From Chiloscyllium plagiosum (taxonomy: Eukaryota), in the NCBI RefSeq assembly GCF_004010195.1, contig NC_057759.1:2213199-2277198 (forward strand): a DNA stretch of 64,000 bases, written 5' to 3'. Position 1 is the stretch's first letter. Each line of letters begins with the position of its first letter. A program made the position numbers and the translations under genes. Below, piece by piece: positions 32,273 through 47,249 of the stretch. The notes under the pieces are model-generated. The model was not told the DNA's origin. It was given only the letters and a program-made list of their open reading frames with translations, and ran no database searches.

Positions 32273-33966
32273 TTAATTATCATTTGTTACTTCTGCATTT
32301 TTCTTATATGTCGCTTCCAAATTGACGAGCATCTTTCCCGAAATTTCATTTATTTTGGAAATCACCCTGAGGTCACTTATTGCTTCATTGTTTAACAGGT
32401 AGAGCCCTTCTCTCTGATTGCTCTTTAGGGGCATTTGTTTCATTAAGGCTGTCTCAATCAGTCTTTGGGTGAGCCCTGCAATACAGGGTATGATGCAACA
32501 GTCAATGGCTACCGATACCCCGGCTACTACTATCAGGGAAGTAAGGACGAAAACCACCATCCCATTCCATTTTCCAAACCATGATTCAAGCCATCCTGTG
32601 AGAGATGTGTCAACCTCTGAATTCTCAGCCAGTTCCTCTGCTAAGGTAGTCAACCCCCTTACGGCCCGAGTAATTGAACCATCAGGTGCAGTGTTATTAG
32701 AATAAAGGTACAACAGCTTCCTCCTAACATAACACACATACATACCATTTTTCTGCTAGAATCATATCAAGGGCCATTCTGTTTTCCCATGCCATCCTAC
32801 TTGTCGCATCAAGCTGTTCTGCTATTCCTTTAACTGCATCTCTTGTATAATTTATAAATTGCTGCTGATTATAGAAAATGTAATTTATCCAATCTACATT
32901 TTTATTAATCGTTACCCACCAAAAAGAGCTGACTCAAAGCCTGCTGCAATCTGGTTGCGAGCCTTGAACTCATCCGGTAACCCCCCTCTTGGAACTCCTA
33001 TAGAGTCTAGATAAATCCTGCCATCAAAAGAGGTGCCTAATAATGATCTTTTACTTCTTCCCTTTTTCTCTACTATCTTGTCCTTCTCAAAAGCCAGGGT
33101 AAATTGAATTATCAATTGTACAATTGCACATATCCCTCTCCAATCCAGAGGTGGGGTGTGTCACAATACTTTGCCTCCACAGTACCACCACAGATCCGCT
33201 CGGGGAACCTTTAGTGCTAAGTAGTTCCCTCCCTTGTCCGTTTCAGTGACATTCTTAATCTCTGTACACAATTTCACCTCCCCCAAGTCTCTGGACCGAT
33301 TTGTACCTCGCCAACAAACACGACGTGTGATTTCCAACTGCAGCTGAAAACGTAGGGGGGCTTTTAAGTCTTTCTTCTCCAAGGGAGGGAACATCAGAGA
33401 TAGGGAGGTACACTTCCTATCATTCCATGCAGTCTCATCCTGGTACAGAGCTATCATACATTTCATGCCTTTCCTGTCTCGCTTCCACCGAAGTGGAAAG
33501 GGAACTACCTGGGCCACTGGCCTACCGGAGGCACATGCATAGCAATTGCTTTTGTTCAGACTTTTTACAGTATACTTTACCCATTCAACCCAGGCATTTG
33601 CATCCCCGTACCCAGTTTCTATTTCGTGGTTTTCTCTATCGTTAGGTATATTGAGTTATGCTCTTTATTGGGACAATCGAGAGCTGGTCGGAAGGGGGCC
33701 TGGTGTACTGTGACGAGACGAATATAACAAGTACCATCTCCAAGGTCATCCCCAAAGGACTTAAGATGTATCTCTGAGCTGCGGTACTGTCTCTGATTAT
33801 CTACATCCCCACAATTTACTAAACTGCATGCAGCAGCGTCTATTACTTGCGGATTATCAGACTCAGGAACCGTTAATAACACATATGAAAATAATGTTTG
33901 ACAAAATCCCAATATTAAGAGAGCTTGTACCATAACCCTAAGCACCCAGAGCATTCTAAAAATCAT
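32273..33966 (-). pseudogene. env: Class I ERV env (ERV-Pb/PABLB-like TM), frameshifted
   Basis: Signal-like N-terminus, CYAC CXXC motif, furin site RSKR, YLDSIGVPRG..PDEFKARNQIAAGFES, ISD WENRMALDMILA, CX6CC (CVMLGGSCC), NNTAPDGSITRA, hydrophobic TM. Confidence 0.92.
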
Positions 33967-34104
33967 GTTGAAGCACCAAAAGACTTAATATACAATCCCA
34001 TAGAAATAATCCCGCGCTCGCGTTGCCACTGTATAATCAGTTACTCAAAGTCTCTTTAGCTTGCGTTTCAGTGATTCTTGCATTGATTCAGTTGTCCTGA
34101 CTTC

Positions 34105-34515: not shown

Positions 34516-35424
34516 GATGTAGCTGTCCATGTTTCAATTAACAATGAATTAATGCAGTCATGTTTTAATTAACCATGAATCAATATGACAGGTCACTTAA
34601 AATGTTTGAAGAAATCCTGCCAATTAATATTGATTTGGGCTAACACAATCGATTTATTATAAACATTCATTATTAATTACATAGTATATAAATAAAATAA
34701 ACATTATCTGTAATTCAGGGTGGAAACGCAACAAGTGTGACCTCAACCTTCTCTTTCATCTCCCCAATGCTTTGGATCCCACGTCCCTATCAGAATATAT
34801 TAAACACTCCCGAATGGCTCGAGCAAATCTTTCCACGAGAATATTGGTCCCCCTCCAGCTTGAATGCAACCCATCCCTCTTGTACAGGAGATCTAACTGA
34901 GGGATATAAGACGCTGAAGAAGTGATTGGCAAAGGAGTTGGAGAAAGAATGCTTCCTTATGTGGTGCAACCTAAAACGAGAGGATCACTGTTTCAGGACA
35001 ATGGGATGGGACAGATTGGAAACAGAGATGGGGAGGAGTGGCTGAGCCTATTTCGCCCCAAGAACTGGATGGGGGAAAGGGAGCTGACCCAAAGGGTCAG
35101 TTTCTGTGCTATCAGTGAGGAGGAATTTCTTCTCTCCGAAAGGAGTCAATCTGTGGAATTATTTACCACACCGGGCTGTGGAGGCTGCATCGTTGAGTGT
35201 ATTGAAGGCTGAGATTTTAAACCAGGAGGGGGAATGGAGGGTAATGGGGAGTAGTGAAGAAAGGTCCCAATGACTGACGACTGTGTCCCACTCAATCTCT
35301 CTCATGCTGTTTGGCTGTGCCCTCTTCATCCACCACTCGCCTGCCACCAGCAGGAACAGACAAGCAGGAAACAGCAGACTGAATCACTGACTGTATACAC
35401 GCTCCAATCAGACAAGACTCTGTG

Positions 35425-35455
35425 ATGGATATCTTCTCTGCTCTCCTACTGCTCG
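35425..35455 (+). CDS. Candidate leader exon S1 of an FcR/FCRL-like gene (MDIFSALLLL+G)
   Basis: ATG plus 31 coding nt, hydrophobic, phase-1 donor G|GTATCT; upstream CAGGAA (ETS-like) sites and CCAAT at 35404. Confidence 0.6.
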
Positions 35456-35619
35456 GTATCTCCAGCTTTTATCACTATTTTGGGGTGGGTGCAAGGAATA
35501 AATCTGTCATTCAGCTCCTGCCCTCAGCTCAGTGTACAATGGGAATGTGAACAGAGGCACAATCATATTGTGTAAGGACAGCAGTGCACATGTGTGCTGG
35601 CATTTCCCAGACTGCTTAA

Positions 35620-36515
35620 CAAATATGTGCACACACGTGCACACGCTTACTCACACACACACACATTCTCACACTTGCTCACACACACTTGCACACATAC
35701 TTTCCAACACTGTTGTTCTCTCACACAGACACCCTCTTACATGCACTCCCACGATCTCTCACACTCACTCACAGTATATATCTCTCACGGACACACTCTC
35801 TAACACCCTTTCTCACAATCTCTCACAGTCTTCACGCACAGTCTCCCTCTCTCAAACTCTCTCATCCAAACACTCTCAGGAGAGTGCAGGAGAGAGAGAA
35901 AGAAGGTGTGAGAGAGAGGGCGTGAGAGAGAGTGAGGGTGTGAGCGAGAGAGTGAAGGTGTGTGTGTGAGAGAGAGAGATAGAGAGAGAGGGGGCAGCGT
36001 GAAAAGGAGATTGAGGGTGCAGGAGAGAGAGATTTTGTATGAGTGTGCGGGAGAGAGGGAGTGATGGCATGATAGGGAGAGTGAGGATACAGAGGAGGGA
36101 CAGAGTGAGGGTATGGGGGAGAGCCAGAGAAAGTGAAGGTGCGGGAAAGAGTGTAGGTGCAGGAGAGAGAGAGTGAGGGAGGGTGTGGGGAAGAGAGAGA
36201 GAATAAGGATAGGAGAGAGTGAGAATGTGAGGGTGAGAGAGAATGTGAGGTTGTAAGAGAGAGAGAGAGCTTGAGAATGTGGGAGAGAGCAGGAGAGTGT
36301 TAAAGTGCAGGAAATAGAGAATGAGGTTGTGGGAGAGAGAGACAGGGTGTGAGGGTGCAGGAGAGATAAAGGAAGAGTTAGGGTGCAGGCGATAAATGGA
36401 GCGAGTGAGGGTGTGTGTGAGGGTGCAGGAGAGAGAGAGAATGAAGGTGCGGGAAAGAGCGAGAATGAGGGTGCCGGGGAGATAGAGAGAAAGAGGCTGC
36501 AGGAGAGAGAGCACA
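35620..36515. repeat. Low-complexity (CA/TC)n tract abutting a (GA/GT)n tract
   Basis: Composition flips at ~35880. Confidence 0.9.
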
Positions 36516-36598
36516 ATTAACAACAGGCAATAAATGCTGGTCTCGTCAGCAATGCCCAAATCCCATGAGTGTATAAAGATAGTGTGTATGTTTCCAAG

Positions 36599-36619
36599 TA
36601 CACATGTTGTGGTGTACAT
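36599..36619 (+). CDS. Candidate 21-nt leader mini-exon S2
   Basis: tttccaAG|TACACATGTTGTGGTGTACAT|GTaaat; phase 1-1, gives V-H-M-L-W-C-T-S in frame with the flanking exons. Confidence 0.42.
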
Positions 36620-36649
36620 GTAAATGAATATGCATGATTGAATTGTAGA

Positions 36650-37760
36650 ATTTGGAAAACAAAGACAATTTTTTTTATCAAGAGCGGGACAATAGTGAAT
36701 GAGTTTAAAATTGCAGGGAACATAAAAACTGACTGTAAAAGCTTCTGCAAACATGTGAAGAGAAAAGTATTTATGATGACAATTGTAGGTGCATTGCAGT
36801 CTGAATCGAGGGGATATTATAATGGCAGAAGATTTGAGTGCATAATTTGGGTATGTCTTCTCAAAAGAGGGAAATAAATCATCTCCCAGTAAATGTTAGA
36901 TAACCAACATCTATTGAGAGGGAGGAACTGAAAGAAATTAGTAATAGTAGGGAAATGGTGTTGGGGAAATTAGTGGGATTGAAGATTGATAAGTCCTGAG
37001 GGACTCTTAATTGATATCTCAACATCCTTAAGAAAGTGGAACTGGATATAATGGGTTCATTGTTGATAATGCTTTAAGATTCTATAGACTTGGGAATAAT
37101 TCCCACATATTGGAAGAGAGGCAATGTAATCCCTCTGTTTAAAATGTAGGTGGCAGAAAGAGACAAAAATAAACACTGAGTATTACAGACCTGATAGCTG
37201 AACATCAGTAAGTAAGGGGGATTCTGGGAATACCTATAAAAGGCGTGATGACAGAACACTTAGAAAGCATTAAAGACATTGTACAAAGCCAGAATTATGA
37301 GAGGCAGAAGAATCTTAGTAAATCAGCCGTCATTTTCTGAGGGTCTAAGGATAAATAAGGGAGAAGCAGTGCATGTAGCTTATTTGGTTTTTCAGAAGAC
37401 ATTTGAGATGAGGTTGATGTGCAAAGCGAAAGGACAAGAGTTTGATGGTAGTATACTGATGTGAATTGAGAATTAGTTGAGAGACGAGAGAGAGAGTGGG
37501 AATAAATGTGTCTTTTACCCAAGAGGTAAATTGTGACTAGTGAGATACTGCAGGAACTGATACATGGGCCCCAGCCACTCTTAATATATATTAATTACCT
37601 GGATGAGGGAGCTAAGTGCAACAGTTCCAAGTTTGCTCATGACACAAAACTGGCCAGGATTGTGAGGAGGATGCAAAGGAAGTGATTTAGACAATTTGAG
37701 TGAGTGGGCAAACACATAGCAGATGCAGTACAACGTGGATAAAAGTCTTTTTGTGGCTAG
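36650..37760 (+). mobile_element. Decayed CR1 LINE ORF2 fragment
   Basis: IKTDCKSFCKHVKRK, AVHVAYLVFQKTF and SKFAHDTKL-like pieces. Confidence 0.75.
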
Positions 37761-37761
37761 A

Positions 37762-38168
37762 AGACATGACCCTCTCTCCCTCGTAGTGCTACACATAGAT
37801 GAAAAAAAAACACCATTTCGACTGGGACAGCACATCTATCCAGGGACAAGCTAAGCAAAGACATGCCAGAGAATTCCTAGAGACCTGGCACTCCAACCAC
37901 AACGCCATAAGCAGACACATAGAACTAGATGCCATCTACCAACCCCTCAGAAAATGAACAGGAAATGACATCACCACAAACCCCAGGAACTCCATCCAGG
38001 AGAAAGATATAAATAGAAAGCAGGAGACAACAGCTTCGCTTCACTTGGAGGTCACCACTGATGATGTTACCTAGCCAGGTAATGAAACGCCTGGATATCA
38101 AACCTACAGCTCAGCAAGCAAACCTACACCCTAAACCTCAACCTGAGCTACAAACCTTCAAAAACCTT
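37762..38168 (+). mobile_element. Penelope-like element 3' end with hammerhead
   Basis: HHFDWD..REFLETWHS..IYQPL; cca-CTGATGA(38058)-tGTTACCT..AGGTAAT-GAAA-CG-CC-tgg (cleavage triplet mutated). Confidence 0.82.
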
Positions 38169-38169
38169 G

Positions 38170-39245
38170 CTTTACTGAAATCCATATACATCGCATCAAC
38201 CGATTTACTCTCATCTACCTGTTTGGTCACTTTGTCAAAAAACTCAATAAGATTCGTTAGGCATGACCTACCCTTCACAAAACCATGCTGACTGTCCCTG
38301 ATCAGATTATTCTTTTCTGGATGGTTATAAATCCTATCTCTTATAACCTTTTCCAACACTTTACCAACAACTGAAGTGAGACTCACTGGTCCGTAATTAC
38401 CAGGGTTGTCTCTACTACCCTTTTTGAACATTTGCTATCTTCCAGTCCTCAGGCACTATTCCTGTAGACAATGATGATTTGAAGCTCAATGCCAAAGGCT
38501 CGGCAATCTCTTCCCTTGCTTTCCAGAGGATTCTACGATAGATCCCATCTGGCCCAGGGGACTTGTCTATTTTCACACTCTGCAGTATTTCTAATACCTC
38601 TTCCTTGTGAACCTCAATCTCTTCCAGTCTAGATGCAAGTATCTCTGTATCTTCCTCGCCAACATTTTCATTTTCTATAGTGAACACTGTCGAAAAATAT
38701 TTATTTAGTGCTTCCCCTATCTCCTCAACTCCACACACAACTTCCCACTATTGTCCTTGATTGGCCCTAATTTAGCTCTCGTCATTCTTTTATTCCTGAC
38801 ATACCAATGGAACGCCTTAGGTTTAACCCTGATCCTAGTTGTCAACAACTTCTCATGTCCCCTCCTGGCTCTTCTGAGCTCTCTCTTTAGGTCTTTCCTG
38901 ACTTCCTAGTAACCCTCAAGCGCCCTAACCGAATTTTCACATTTTGTCCTAACATAAGCCTTCTTCTTCTTCTTGACCAGGGATTCCATTTCCTTAGTAA
39001 ACCACGGCTCACACGTTCTATATCTTCCTCCCTGCCTGACAGGTACATACTTATCTAGGACACACAGGAGCTTTTCCTTGAATAAGCTCCACATTTTTTA
39101 ATGTGCTCATCCCCTGCAATTTCCTTCCCCATTCTACCTTTCCTAAATCTTTCTTAATTGCATCGTAATTTCCCTTCTCCCAGCTGTAACTCATGCTCGG
39201 GGGAGTACACCTATCCCTTTCCATCACTAAAGTAAACCTTACAGA
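38170..39245 (-). mobile_element. CR1 LINE ORF2 fragment
   Basis: KSPGPDGIY, QHGFVKGRSCLTNLIEFF, YMDFSKA. Confidence 0.92.
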
Positions 39246-39295
39246 GGCAATGCCCCCTTGTCTCGGGCCCTCCCACACAAGGGGAAACAACGTGT

Positions 39296-39612
39296 GGGCG
39301 GCACGGTGGCACAGTGGTTAGCACTGCTGCCTCACAGCACCAGAGACCTGGGTTCAATTCCCGCCTCAGGCGACTGACTGTGTGGAGTTTGCACGTTCTC
39401 CCCGTGTCTGCGTGGGTTTCCTCCGGGTGCTCCGGTTTCCTCCCACAGTCCAAAGATGTGCAGATTAGGTGAATTGGCCATGCTAAATTGCCCGTAGTGT
39501 TAGGTAAGGGGTAAATGTAAGGGTATGGGTGGGTTACGCTTCGGCGGGTCGGTGTGGACTTGTTGGGCCGGAGGGCCTGTTTCCACACTGTAATGTAATC
39601 TAATCAAATCTA
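39296..39612 (+). mobile_element. HE1 / V-SINE, young full-length copy
   Basis: GGGCGGCACGGTGGCACAGTGGTTAGC head with CpGs retained, V-domain, TAATC tail. Confidence 0.95.
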
Positions 39613-40348
39613 AAAACGTCTTCTGCAACAATGCTTTAAAAGCCTTGAAGTATATTGCATAAGGTCGCCTCTCCTTCTTGTAAATTCCAATGAGTAAGGC
39701 CCAACTTACTCAATTTCTCCCTCATTAGACAGCCCCTCCCTACCCAGCTCAGCTGAGTGAACCTTCTGTAGACTGCCTCCAATGCTGGTCTAACCTTCCT
39801 TCGATATGGGGCCCAAACTGTTTACTGGATCCTAGCTGTAGCCTGTATAGCTTTAGTAAAACTTCCCACCTTTTATACCCATTTCCTTTGAAATAAAAAC
39901 AATTTGTGTTCCCTGTAACCCATTGTATTTGCATGCTAGCTTTTTTTGTGATTCACAAAGAAGGACTCCTGAAATCCCTCTGATCCATAGCTTTCTACAG
40001 TCTTTCTCCATTTAAACAATACCCAGCTCCTCTATAGTTCCTGTCAATGGGATGCACTGCTCCTGAGAATTACAGAATTTTTTTTCCTGTATTTTGGATA
40101 GTGGGATGAAATGGGGAAAAGACACTGCGAAAGCAAAACTCGGTACCCCTTTTGGAAATTTGTTTTATAATCATAAGTGGAAGGGTTGGTTACACAGCTG
40201 CTTGTTGAAGCAGGAGGGAAAGTCATGTTGGATGATGAGCTGGAGTCAGGGACTTATATGAGTAGAGACTTTGCTGGCACCAGGCAGCTCATTGGTCTGG
40301 TTGGTTCTTATGCCCCATTATTAATTCAAGTCATTTCTTTCTTGACAG

Positions 40349-40636
40349 CTCCTGATTCGCTTATGAGTATTGAATCTGAGCCAATAGTTCTGAGGTATGA
40401 ACAGACACTGAAATTGAGTTGTCAATTCATGTTCCGTGCGCCCGATGAATTCATTTAGACATTTTATTGGGAAGGCTCTGTTGTGGCTGAGATCCAGACA
40501 AGAAATGAAACTGTTTCTTTTGAAAAGGAACGGGTTACGTTTGAAGATGCAGGACGGTATCGATGCCAAATGCAGTTTGTTAAGCATCCCAATGGTCCTG
40601 TATACACATCAGCTTACAAACATGTGGATGTGTGAG
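40349..40636 (+). pseudogene. C2-type Ig-domain exon with two in-frame stops
   Basis: ttcttgacAG|..|GTacgt, 288 nt, phase 1-1; PDSLMSIESEPIVLRYEQTLKLSCQFMFRAPDEFI*TFYWEG..VTFEDAGRYRCQMQF..KHVDV*; TAG 40456-40458, TGA 40633-40635. Confidence 0.88.
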
Positions 40637-40829
40637 GTACGTTTCACTTTAGAATATAAGAGTTAGAAGTAGAACGAGACCATTCAATCCCTGCAAAACC
40701 TGCTTCCCCCATTCCATACGACTGTGGCTGAACATATCTCAGCCTCATCTCTACCTCCCTGCCCCCACTCTCTTTAACCCGTCATGTTGACTTGAAACGA
40801 TGGCCAATGTTGAACCCTCAACATGTACC

Positions 40830-43800
40830 TGACACTCCCAATTCCAAAGTCAAGCTGACTGGTCTATAATTCCAAATGGATGTAGTCTATATGGACTTTA
40901 CTGAGGCCTTTGACAAGTTCCTGCATGGCAGACTAGTCACAAAGGTTGTGATCCAGGGAGAGCAAGCCTTATTGGATTCAAATTGCCTCGGTTCTAGGAA
41001 GCAGATGTGATGTTTGAAGGTTGTTTCTCAGACTGGAGGCCTGTGACTTGTGGTGTGCCACAGGATTCAGTGCTGGGACATGTGTTATTTGTTATTTACA
41101 CAAATGATCTGGCTGTAAATGTACAAGGCATGATTAATAAGTTAGTGGATGATACAAAATTAGAGTTACGGTTGACAGCAAGAAAGGTTATCAAAAATTA
41201 CAGAGGGATCTTGATCAGATGGGAAAGTAGTCTGAAGATTGGCATAATCAAAAATCCTTCTGACTCCTCCTCAAATTTATTAAGTGTTCTGGCATCCCCC
41301 ACAACCTCTGGGGAGGGCGGAGTGGTGAATTTCTACAGATTCACGCCTCCCTTCCCCGACTCCCAATTTTAAGAAAAGGGATTCCTCCTTATCTCTGCTT
41401 TCAGTCTGCTCAGCCCCTTACCCTGAAATAATGACCTCTCATTCTAGATTGTCTCACAGGAGGAAACATCCTCTCTTCAGTTGCTTTGTCGGCCCCACCC
41501 CACCCTTTCGCATCTTACTCTCAATCTTCTAAACTACAGAGAGTATACGTCGAAACCATTTAATCTCTCCACATAAGACAAACCCCTGGAATTGATTGAA
41601 TGGATCTCCGCTGAACAGCCTCCAATGCAATTACATCTCTCCTTAAGTAAGTGTACCTAACCACCACACAGTTCTCTGGATGCGAAAACCCTCAGACCTT
41701 GTACAGTTGCAGCAACATTTCCCTACTCAATTACACCATTCTTTCAGCAATTGCCAGTTGCCTTCCTTGCTGTAATAAGATTTGTGCACAAGGACACCCA
41801 GATCCCTCTGCACCGAATAACTTTGAAGTTTCACTCCTACTTGAATAATAAGTTGCACTTCTATTCCTTTGACCACAATGGGCAACCCCAATCATACTCG
41901 CATCAAATGTCAAATTTTGTCACTATTACCTAACCTATTCTGTTCCATTTCTAAATGTCTTATTTCTACCTTGCAATTTGGTTTCCCAACTATTTTAGCA
42001 CCATCTACAAATTTGCCTGGAGTAACTTCTATCCCTGTGTCCAAATCATGAATACAGATTCTAAATAGTTGGAGACAAAGGCTTAACCCTGTGAGTTGCA
42101 CTCATTATATCCCAGTCAAACAGAAAAAAGATCCATTTATCCTGACTCTGTTCGCTGTTGGCTAGTCAATCCGCTGTCTAAACTAATGTTGTTCCCTGAA
42201 TTTGATGTGGACATTATTTTGAAAGTTCGTCCTATGATTTGATTGATTTAATTCCCATCAAATCTAGAGGAAAATGTATTTCAGCAGCTGAAACGATGAC
42301 ACTGAGTGATTGGCATTATTGAAGCAGTAATAATCTGAGCGGTTAATTCTAGCTGATAACAGCACGGTACTGGCTCTGATATCAATAGCTGGCTGTAATG
42401 CCTATGGTTTTAGCCATCACCCATCTCCCTGATACTCCCAATTCCAACGTGAGGCTGACTGACCTATAATGCCCAATGGATGTTGTCTACATGGATTTTA
42501 ACAAGGTCCCCGCACAGCAGACTAGTCATAAAGGTTAGGGCGTCTAGGATCCAGGGAAACCTAACTAATTGGACTCAAATTTCGCAGAATTCTAGGCAGC
42601 AGAGAGTGATAGTTGAAGGTTTTTTTTCTTGGACTGGAAGCCTGTGACTAGTGGTACGCCACAGGAGTCGGTGCTAGGACCTTTGTTATTTGTTATTTAC
42701 ATAAATGGTCTGAATGTGAATGTACAAGGCATGATTAGTAAATTGGTGGATATTACAAAATTAGAAGGTATTAATGATAGCAAGGAAGAGGTTATCAACA
42801 ATTACTGAGGGATCTTGATCAGATGGGGAAGCTGGCTGAGGATTGGCAAATGCAATTCAATACATAGAAGTGTGAGGTGTCACACTGTAGAAAGTCAAAC
42901 CAAGATAGGAAATATAAAGGTCCAGAGACGTGAGTGGAACAGAGGATTCTAGGAGTGCAAACATATAGTTTGTTGAAGGCAGCATAATCGGGTGACAAGT
43001 TAGTTAAGGCATTTAGCATGCTGGCCTTCATCGGTCGAGGCATTGAACATAAGAGTTGGGACTTTATGTTGCTGTTGTATAAGTCGTTGGTGAGGCTGCA
43101 GTTGTAGTGTTGTGTACAGTTTTGAGCACCTTGTTATAAGAAAACATAGTTAAACTGGAAAGAGTGCAAAGAAGATTTATAAGGATGTTGCCAGGATGCG
43201 TAGGTTTGGGTTTGAGGAAGAGGTTGTCCAGGATAGGATTTTATTCCTTGGAACGTGGGAGAATGAGGGGTGACCTTATAGAGGTATATAAATCATCAGA
43301 GGCACGGACATGATGAATGCAAATAGTCTTTTTATCCCAGGAATGGGGAAATGACAACAAGAGGGCACAGGTTTAAGGTGAGAATGGAAAGATTTAAGAA
43401 GGACCTGAGGAGCAACTTTTTCATACAGACTATGGTGCGCATATGAAATGGATTGGAGGAGAAAATGGCTGAGGCAGGTACAATAGTAACATTTTTAAAA
43501 AGACATTTGGATAGGTACATGGATGGGAAGGGTTTAGAGGGATGTGGACCAAATGAGGGCAGTTGTAACTAGCTTAGTGTGAACCATAGTTGGCATGGAC
43601 CAGTTTGGACCGAACGGTCTGTTTTCCTGCTGTATTACTGGATGATCCTAACTCTCTTTTTAAATAGTAAGGTTGCATCATCAATCGTCTGATATGCAGG
43701 CACTATCCCAGCATCTGTGGGATACTCAAACAGTCTGTTGGATCCTTGAACACTGTCACCAATGCAACCATTAATTCTACAGCCACTTCCTTAACCACTC

Positions 43801-44545
43801 TGGAATGTAGTTTGGCAGGCCCTGAGGATTGATCTCCCTTCAATTTCATCAATTTCCCTAGCAATATTCCTTTATTTCCTTCCACTCAACAACTTCCGTG
43901 TTCCCCATCATTTCCAGCACATTTTTCATCGCCTCCTGTATGAAGACAGAAGTGAAGTATAAATTCAGTTCATCAGCCATTTCTTTGTTCCTCACTGTAA
44001 ATTCTCTTGTTTCCGAGTGCAATGGACTTAGATTAGTTTTCAGCAATACTTTTCGCTTTATATATTTGCAGAAGCCTTTCCAGTCTGTTTTTATGTTCCC
44101 AGCAAGCCCACACTAATACTCTAGTTTCCACTTCTCACGCAATCTTTTGGTCCCCCATCGGTGACTTCTGAACTGTTCCTCATCCTCAAGGCTACTCTTT
44201 CTTTTCTTGCTAATTTGAAATCCTTTTTGTTTTTTTTGCATCTAATACTATCTGAAACATCCTCTGTAAGCCATACTTTGGCCACTGTTCCAGTTTCACT
44301 TAAATCAGTTTGGAATAAATAATTGTAGTAGTTGACCATTAGCTCTTTGAATGCTCGCCACTGCCTACCCACTCTCATACTTTTCAGTAACATTTCCCAA
44401 TCTATCATAGCCTACCCACGCCTCATACTACCATAGTTTACTTTATTAACATTCAGAAACCTAGTCTCAGAATCTCACTCTCCATTCTAACGAAACATTC
44501 TATCATGCTATGAATGTTTATCCCAAAGGATCTCTCACAACTGCA
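40830..44545. mobile_element. Nested CR1 LINE fragments in both orientations
   Basis: GVPQDSVLG, KLVDDTKL and KFVDGAKI RT motifs and 3' UTRs. Confidence 0.85.
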
Positions 44546-44832
44546 CTATCTATCCTTCCAACAAAAAGCAATCTAAATGGACAAGCATATGGACGTACAT
44601 GGAATAGTGTAGGTTAGATGGGCTTCAGATTGGTATGCCAGGTATGGCAACATCGAGGGACGAACGGCTTGTACTGCGCTGTAGTGTTCTTTGTTCTATG
44701 TAAATACATAAAGCTATTCAGTCTATATCCATGCTTTAAAACTGATTTTAGATGTAATGGTGTCAGAAATACCTGCGAGTTAATGATTAACATCAAATGC
44801 AGAGTTGAAAATACATCAGTTAATTGCTGCTT

Positions 44833-45045
44833 AAATAACTCTACAGAGGCTGGTATTCAGTCAAGTCACCCTTTAATTACTTGTGTATAGTACAGGACAC
44901 GGACCCAGCTAGCTCAGAGCTGGCTCCTAATTCCCTGCCACCACTGTTTACATCTTTCAGCCAGAACTCTCTGATTGCACCAGATTAACAGCCCCAATCG
45001 GGGAACTCACATTCTATGTGTTCCACCCGGCTGACATCATCACAC
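44833..45045 (-). mobile_element. Solo LTR related to the 29895 Gypsy LTR
   Basis: Reverse complement gtcagccgggtggaacacatagaatgtgagttccccgattgggg..gctgggtccgtgtcctgtactat matches 29910-30070. Confidence 0.65.
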
Positions 45046-45151
45046 CGACTCCAATTGTGAAGCAGATATCCAAGCAACAGACATTGAAAATGATTAATCA
45101 AAATCTTATGGTTTACATCACAAAACATTTTAACCACTCTGTCAATTTCAG

Positions 45152-45418
45152 ATATTCCGGTGATTTTGCAGGTGAATCCCAGGCTGCAGAAAGCCGGTGA
45201 TTCCATCACACTGAATTGTACCTGTGCCCAGGATCACATGTATGGGAGAGGACAAATTTCCTTCCACAGAAACGAAACTCTTGTGAGTTCTGATTCTGTA
45301 TCTCACAACATCTATTGCATCCACCAAGCGAACCCAATGGATTCAGGATGGTACCACTGCATGGTTTTCCAGAACCTTTCGATGTTCACGTCCCTCGGGG
45401 TAGGAGTCACTGTCCAGA
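45152..45418 (+). CDS. Intact C2-type Ig-domain exon, FcR/FCRL-like
   Basis: atttcAG|..|GTGAGT, 267 nt, phase 1-1; IPVILQVNPRLQKAGDSITLNCTC..ISFHRN..DSGWYHCMV..VGVTVQ. Confidence 0.9.
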
Positions 45419-45844
45419 GTGAGTGAACCGAGTGGCCGCGGTGCGGTGGGAGGTGTGGGGAGAGTCTAACACGGGATGGAAACCATAGTTCACTAGCGCT
45501 GATCTGGCTAAATGGAAATCGTGTCTTTCGTTTCTCATCTTGAAACCAATCAGGACACTTTGCAAGAGTTCTAACTTGAGCGGGAGCAAATTGACATTGG
45601 CTATGGAAGAGAGGGGATTGATTGGCTGTCTGGTTCCTATGGAGGACGTGACGGTCAATGCAACTGCTCAAAATAGGCCTGAAATCTTCACGTCATCTTC
45701 TATAGCTTTTAGAATAATCCCAGTTTTTCTCTCCAAATTTATCTACTGGAAATGAGGGTGAGTTTCAAGAGGAGTGTTCCACGATTAGTAAACCACCGAT
45801 ATTCACCTCTGCCCTAATCTTGAGACCAGATTCTAACTGAAGTA

Positions 45845-47141
45845 GTTCTGTTCGCCGAGCTGGGAATTTGTGTTGCAGACGTTTCATCCCCTGTCTAGGT
45901 GACATCCTCAGTGCTTGGGAGCCTCCTGTGAAGCGCTTCTGTGATCTTTCCTCCGGCATTTGTAGTGTTTTGTATCTGCCGCTTCCAGTTGTCAGTTCCA
46001 GCTGTCCGCTGCAATGGTGGGTATATTGGGTCCAGGTCGATGTGCTTATTGATTGAATCTGTGGATCAGTGCCAAGCCTCTAGGAATTCCTTGGCTGTTC
46101 TCTGTTTGGCTTGTCCTATAATAGTAGCGCTGTCCCAGTCGAATTCATGTTGCTTGTCATCGGAGTGTGTGGCTACTAAGGATAGCTGGTCGTGTCATTT
46201 CGTGGCTAGTTGGTGTTCATGGATGCGGATCGTTAGCTGTCTTCCAGTTTGTCCTATGTAGTGTTTTGTGCAGTCCTTGCATGGGATTTTGTACACTACA
46301 TTTGTTTTGCTCATGCTGGGTATCGGATTTCTGGGTATCCAGAAAGAAGGACCAAATACCCANNNNNNNNNNNNNNNNNNNNNNNNNNNNNNNNNNNNNN
46401 NATGTATTCGCCAAAAACGGATACCCGCGCAATTTCATCAACAGATGCCTAAGGGAAAGACAATGGAATGAGGACATGCCACAACCCAAAGGACTAGCCA
46501 CACTACCATACATCAGGAGCATTTCCGAACTGACAGCCAGACTACTGCGACTATTAGGACTCATAACAGCACACAAACCAACAGCTATTCTCAGACAACA
46601 ACTCACCGGGACGAAGGACCCAATACCCAGCATGAGCAAAACCAATGTAGTGTACAAAATCCCATGCAAGAACTGCACAAAACACTACATAGGACAAACT
46701 GGAAGACAGCTAACGATCCGCATCCATGAACACCAACTAGCCACGAAGCGACACGACCAGCTATCCTTAGTAGCCACACAAGCAGATGACAAGCAACATG
46801 AATTTGACTGGGATAACACTACTATTATCGGAAAAGCCAAACAGAGAACAGCCGGGGAATTCCTAGAGGCATGGCACTCATCCACAGATTCAATCAATAA
46901 GCACATCGACCTGGACCCAATATACCGACCACTGCAGCGGACAGCTGGAACTGACAACAGGAAGCGGCAGATTCAAACTACTACAAATGCCGGAGGAAAG
47001 ATCACAGAAGCGCTTCACAGGAGGCTCCCAAGCACTGAGGATGTCACCTAGACAGGGGACAAAACGTCTGCAACACAAATTCCCAGCTCGGCGAATAGAA
47101 CCACAACAACGAGCACCCGAGCTACAAATTTTCTCACAAAC
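45845..47141 (+). mobile_element. Penelope-like retroelement with inverted 5' copy; RT thumb and GIY-YIG endonuclease
   Basis: FAKNGYP..LPYI..NVVYKIPCKNCTKHYIGQTGR..RIHEH (46402-47051); 45845-46330 is its inverted repeat; hammerhead motifs at ~45880-45912 (-) and ~47035-47068 (+, GAAA mutated to AAAA); 39-N gap inside. Confidence 0.95.
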
Positions 47142-47249
47142 TGGAGATAATTTGGATGTCTGTGGCCTCTGCCTATTTAATTTGGCCTAATTCTGTGCAA
47201 GGGTTTTGCATTTGCTGGGTGCGTGTAATTTGATTGTTCTCAGTCTGTG

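Follow-up and report, generated by a model that had tools for sequence, protein, structure and literature searches.

A probable pseudogene from an FcR/FCRL-like family in Chiloscyllium plagiosum and the split leader of its shark relatives

The window copy and its paralogs on contig C50

The window (the whole stretch of 64,000 nucleotides of Chiloscyllium plagiosum that was analysed) lies on contig C50 and carries parts of an Ig-domain gene (Table 1). Four stretches had been proposed as exons in a first-pass annotation; all four have AG/GT ends and the lengths listed, and joining them in frame gives the annotation's protein. The two stop codons noted in the 'Ig1' exon are also real: a TAG at 40456-40458, where three open paralogs have TAC or TGC, and a TGA at 40633-40635, where the three have CAA or CGA. 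What was taken for the first Ig domain is actually the second of the family, as the paralogs have a D1-type Ig exon between the leader and 'Ig1'. In our domain tree the window Ig1 joins domain 2 of six shark proteins (support 99/100), and the window Ig2 joins domain 3 of Chiloscyllium and Stegostoma proteins (100/98).

Table 1. Features of the gene copy, in window positions
Feature	Position	Strand	Remarks
Leader exon S1	35425..35455	+	31 coding nt, MDIFSALLLL; same as the N-terminus of P0003 and P0004
Proposed mini-exon	36599..36619	+	21 nt; intron sequence, rejected as an exon
Deletion site	37747..39611		Breaks relative to copies B, C and D; now a 1.9 kb high-copy repeat
Ig exon, family domain 2 ('Ig1')	40349..40636	+	288 nt, two stop codons
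Ig exon, family domain 3 ('Ig2')	45152..45418	+	267 nt, open frame

The donor of S1 in the window copy is GTATCT, with 4 nt lost, where most paralogs have GTATGT or GTACGT. Ig2 is recognized by Pfam as an Ig domain with a score under the curated cut-off; among solved structures its top match is domain 2 of FcgRI (17.7 bits, versus 8.9 and 2.0 for the other two FcgRI domains). As Ig2 is still open and its pN/pS against five paralogs is 0.43-0.76, the decay of the copy may be recent.

The window copy is colinear with copies B, C and D up to 37746 and again from 39612-39644, and thus 9.0-10.3 kb are missing, including the second leader exon (S2) and the D1 exon. The repeat in place of the lost segment has many matches elsewhere; we read it as LINE/SINE remnants, and its open reading frame matched no Pfam family. 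A D1-type N-terminal C2 domain, present in the intact relatives, is therefore deleted here, and neither the D5-type membrane-proximal domain of the paralogs nor the uncharged membrane segment and ITIM-type motifs of the RefSeq proteins XP_072422780.1 (P0003) and XP_043539744.1 (P0004) were found in the window copy. D5, membrane and tail exons were looked for between 40 kb before the window and 60 kb beyond it, and none turned up; for the membrane and tail exons this covers 78 kb downstream. A search with one uncharged membrane-exon query, covering the uncharged type of the shark subfamily, gave seven matches in the genome, all at least 0.78 Mb away (the nearest on the same strand at 1.1 Mb). 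Two assembly gaps (39 and 500 N) downstream of Ig2 could conceal exons.

Two neighboring segments of the window were also noted. Positions 45842-47142 hold a 485-nt inverted repeat (94%) that flanks an assembly gap and has copies in other loci; this insertion is missing at the same place in paralogs B, H and I. On the minus strand, 1.4 kb upstream of exon 1, there are three short open frames (32273-33984) that matched no Pfam family, which we take to be pieces of a broken retrovirus-like envelope gene.

Exon 1, Ig1, Ig2 and D1 each have 8 to 12 matches genome-wide, mostly on C50, and the window's own contig carries paralogs of exon 1 and of the two Ig exons. Most of the other copies in the 1.04 Mb examined have stops, frameshifts or missing exons, a pattern that suggests a birth-and-death cluster. 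Intact members of the family have a leader on exons of 31 nt (S1) and 30 nt (S2), followed by four exons for Ig domains, one for an uncharged membrane segment and a tail with tyrosine motifs. One complete annotated protein was mapped: P0004 matches contig C50 letter for letter, with 5' exons that belong to copy D and 3' exons that belong to copy C, a combination that may reflect either real read-through splicing or an effect of assembly or annotation. The P0004 model (G000:C50:5125795-5236190, minus strand) spans 110 kb and skips the leader, the frameshifted D1 and D2 and the disrupted D5 of copy C. Orphan membrane and tail exons are found on both strands at G000:C50:5390003-5415329 and 6381096-6427970, with no family-1 Ig exons nearby, a sign of local inversions or misassembly.

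The second leader exon

Aligning the introns of the paralogs revealed a 30-nt S2 with AG/GT ends, a pyrimidine-rich acceptor and a GTATGT donor. Of the 11 copies with S1, nine contain it; it is missing from the window copy and from copy K (in which S2 was looked for in 40 kb). Over seven copies its mean identity is 95%, compared with 83% in the 100 intron bases that follow. RefSeq proteins of three bamboo-shark species have S1, then the S2 peptide, then D1, a Stegostoma protein has a near match to the S2 peptide, and one isoform (P0006) skips S2. The leader of this family is thus split over exons of 31 and 30 nt, both in the gene copies and in the RefSeq proteins. A second leader exon of 21 nt, the mammalian length, was not found; it is 30 nt in both shark subfamilies (the second is described below). 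Since S2 is 30 nt, whether a shark gene belongs here cannot be judged by the 21-nt 'hallmark'. A 30/21 leader rule is followed by only a fraction of the Xenopus XFL genes, according to PMC2413239.

The D1 exon of the paralogs (e.g. near G000:C50:5228015) can start at either of two in-frame acceptors 9 nt apart; the upstream one is that of the carpet-shark RefSeq models, and the shorter N-terminus of the catshark proteins agrees with the downstream one.

Other sources for a 21-nt exon were considered and rejected. Two further 21-nt candidates with better acceptors (38586-38606 and 39184-39204) are inside the repeat that fills the deletion and are missing from the family proteins. The first seven codons of the D1 exon might have been a fused 21-nt S2, an idea that we dropped because a separate 30-nt S2 exists and because the stretch before D1 is shorter in other sharks.

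RNA reads on 35150-39250 (four runs; ~2% of X6; X7, 0 reads) are mostly in repeats, with a depth of ~1 at exon 1; at that depth, none of the joints listed is at 35455 or 36599.

We consider the window copy to be, with high probability, a broken partial duplicate (a likely pseudogene) of a shark FCRL-like gene, which retains S1 together with the second and third Ig exons, lacks S2 and Ig exon 1 and has acquired two stops. Two other readings of the locus can be weighed against this one. The first-pass annotation had the gene splicing its 31-nt exon to a 21-nt mini-exon, a signature that sharks would have in common with mammalian FcR/FCRL genes. The proposed mini-exon does have 21 nt, AG/GT ends and an in-frame hydrophobic peptide, copy D retains all 21 nt with AG/GT, and a second exon of 21 bp is the mammalian rule according to PMC7940838. 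But it is only one of 20 stop-free AG-N21-GT stretches in the intron (35456-40348), and its acceptor is weak (AAG, with 53% pyrimidines upstream). The stretch is broken or missing in six of the seven exon-1 paralogs checked: B lacks 2 nt, C lacks 6 nt along with the donor GT, and no match was seen in E, F, G1 or G2. Copy D itself has the 30-nt exon too, and its annotated protein P0004 uses the 30-nt peptide, whereas the 21-nt peptide is in none of the shark family proteins whose sequences were read. The annotation had named a different leader in the paralogs as the result that would overturn its proposal, and this is what we see: paralogs and RefSeq proteins have 31 and 30 nt, or skip exon two. 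The mini-exon is intron sequence, and this version of the leader, to which we give hardly any credence, is largely refuted.

It is also quite unlikely, if somewhat less so, that the copy is truncated but active, as a short secreted Ig domain (S1 joined straight to Ig2), a regulatory RNA or a donor of exons by gene conversion. S1 and Ig2 both have open frames and their phases match, the pN/pS of Ig2 is ~0.5, and the annotated P0004 is itself stitched from two adjoining copies; on the other hand, the S1 donor is altered, no exon was found downstream, and the low pN/pS may stem from selection that acted on the ancestral gene or along the branch of the paralog. No open frame from leader to membrane anchor was found at the locus, given the two stops, the deletion and the absence of a membrane exon among those searched for. 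Because the 78 kb downstream yielded neither a membrane nor a tail exon, a pseudogene fragment is the most likely reading; what had been described as a gene is a decayed fragment, with a deletion, without S2 and with no downstream exons found. Segmental duplication within a birth-and-death cluster would have produced such a copy, which probably makes no receptor, because S1 spliced to the next Ig exon would run into a stop after ~46 codons.

The shark family and its likeness to FcR/FCRL receptors

In the intact relatives, a signal peptide is followed by three to six Ig domains of the C2 type, an uncharged membrane helix and a tail that carries two or three ITIM-type motifs. In all nine proteins checked the tail contains two or three motifs that read IVYSxV, VTYASL or SIYQNI or differ little from these. 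The searches gave related proteins for ten species of shark, which belong to eight genera. The RefSeq shark models named FCRL 2/3/4/5 or FcgRI-like (P0004, P0003 and XP_060712762.1, or P0012, among them) belong to the same family as the window copy, with S1 and domains 2 and 3 in common and 77-82% identity over the Ig2 exon; these names come from automatic annotation and carry no curated orthology. Unlike the window copy with its two stops, these models are intact, with the 30-nt S2, D1, the membrane segment and the tail.

P0003 aligns with human FCRL5 in a single stretch (residues 5-345, spanning FCRL5 domains 1-4; E 1e-45 for the protein), and it aligned with FCRL4 too. A profile built from 12 shark proteins gives E-values of 1.8e-85 for FCRL5, 1e-29 for titin and 3.6e-25 for CEA. 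Best single stretches are a fairer measure, because summed scores favor repeat proteins; by these the order is FCRL5 (91 bits), FCRL4 (89), CEA (55) and titin (40). Of the 157 profile matches, the top 60 include neither CD22 nor PECAM1 nor LILR. On D1 of FcgRI, domain 1 of the profile reaches 42.6 bits, versus 19 on the corresponding stretch of CEA, and domain 4 of the family matches repeats 7-9 of FCRL5, not its domains 1-3. Domain 2 alone is weak (E 0.008 for FceRIa and 0.011 for LILRA2), while in the whole protein domains 2 and 3 are colinear with D2-D3 of FCRL5. As domain 3 fits D2 of FcgRI best, the shark order may be D1-D2-D2-D5 rather than D1-D2-D3-D5.

A distant Ig exon led to a second subfamily, with 11 matches on C50. 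One copy (G000:C50:3851739-3875000, minus strand) has seven open Ig exons, and its paralogs are found from 1.0 to 7.1 Mb on C50. We read the order of its domains as D1-, D2-, D2-, D3-, D3-, D5- and D4-like, two of the exons having been tested against solved structures: the fourth Ig scores 32.2 bits on D3 of FcgRI (6.0 on D1 and 4.8 on D2), and the sixth matches the D5-type repeats of FCRL5. Three of six copies in this subfamily have a 31-nt hydrophobic exon and a 30-nt exon; of the others, one has an open 30-nt match, one an offset match and one has lost the splice sites. Judged by their conservation, these are putative leader exons, which suggests that both subfamilies use 31 + 30 nt.

Human FCRL4 and FCRL5 have an uncharged membrane segment and an ITIM-type tail, as the shark proteins do. 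The human proteins (PDB 9loc, 9mbz) and the shark family also have in common four colinear domains, with an FcR-type D1 first and a D5-type domain next to the membrane, and a split leader with a first exon of 31 nt; they differ in the second leader exon, which in sharks is 30 nt and not 21. The Xenopus XFL family, as described in PMC2413239, resembles the shark cluster in being large, with fragments and shuffled D1-D5 exons, and its signal peptide is always on two exons. The XFLs include activating forms with a charged membrane motif; the seven shark membrane exons were found with an uncharged query.

The first-pass assignment to an FcR-like family in sharks is supported by the colinear match with FCRL5 and FCRL4 and by the matches of D1 to D1 and D5 to D5. 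The family can be called FcR/FCRL-like, which is well supported by sequence, short of proof from phylogeny or synteny. An alternative is that it is a shark-specific expansion of Ig receptors nearer to CEACAM, CD22 or the LRC receptors, with a likeness to FCRL that is only generic similarity of C2 domains. CEA is the top match of a single D1 exon by summed score, and a fold search with Foldseek (the AlphaFold model of P0003, pLDDT 73) puts LILRB2/PirB ahead of FcgRI and FCRL5, among generic multi-Ig matches that do not discriminate between the families. The ESM Atlas returned Ig clusters, FCRL5 and FCGR3 included, all at 0.92-0.94, which we treat as a lead only. The 21-nt exon is missing, and the domain tree (49 rows, 91 columns; nearly all shark) leaves the deep forks open. 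The tree is under-sampled because the word-based searches gave sharks, one bird FcR-like protein and contactins: its non-shark rows are that bird protein and contactin-5, with no rows for human FCRL, CD22, CEACAM or PECAM. Linkage to the human 1q21-23 block was looked for with UFC1, COPA and PRCC, markers of 1q23, and with Ets. UFC1 and COPA are on other contigs (C95364 and C84483), PRCC was not found, and C50 had no match for these three families or for Ets. Against all this, the matches are specific for the type of domain, including the preference of the second subfamily's D3-like exon for D3 of FcgRI, and the domains follow one another as they do in FCRL4 and FCRL5. CEACAM and CD22 have a V-type N-terminal domain, and no such domain was seen in the shark family. 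We therefore regard the alternative as unlikely and keep to an FcR/FCRL-like family.

Proposed function and earlier accounts

Inhibitory FCRLs recruit SHP-1/SHP-2 and damp B-cell signaling. By analogy, the intact shark relatives, presumably type I surface receptors of leukocytes, would damp signaling via SH2 phosphatases at their ITIM-type motifs, and immunoglobulin is one candidate ligand. The locus in the window is presumably an ordinary dead gene copy; the family and its 31 + 30 leader are of more weight. On balance we favor the view that sharks have a true FcR/FCRL family, with at least two subfamilies on one contig that jointly contain D1- to D5-type domains and with a split leader of 31 + 30 nt. 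If this is true, the family was already present in the common ancestor of jawed vertebrates, contrary to reviews as late as 2026, the 21-nt mini-exon is a later or lineage-specific form, and an intact ITIM-bearing member is a candidate immunoglobulin receptor of shark B cells. The domain-type matches and the two-exon leader support real homology and single out the intact genes as candidate receptors for IgM, IgW or IgNAR.

Shark orthologues had been called poorly defined in the first-pass annotation. RefSeq already contains automatic FCRL- or FcgRI-like names for proteins in the ten shark species returned. Passages in papers of 2014, 2017 and 2026 (PMC4016189, PMC5742104 and PMC13337447) say that FCRL is missing from cartilaginous fish and ask how sharks use antibody without Fc-receptor-like genes; we count these statements against the identity of the family. 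We found no dedicated account of the structure of shark FCRL genes in the literature covered, most subscription papers lying outside it. The term 'fcr' is absent from the main text of PMC13262535, whose supplements may bear on the age of the family. A single-cell paper of 2024 (PMC11372145) lists fcrl names in shark B cells, and the rows found in its supplement are tongue-sole. An earlier trace is the 1988 title 'Fc receptor for shark IgM', an entry in the reference list of PMC6795676.
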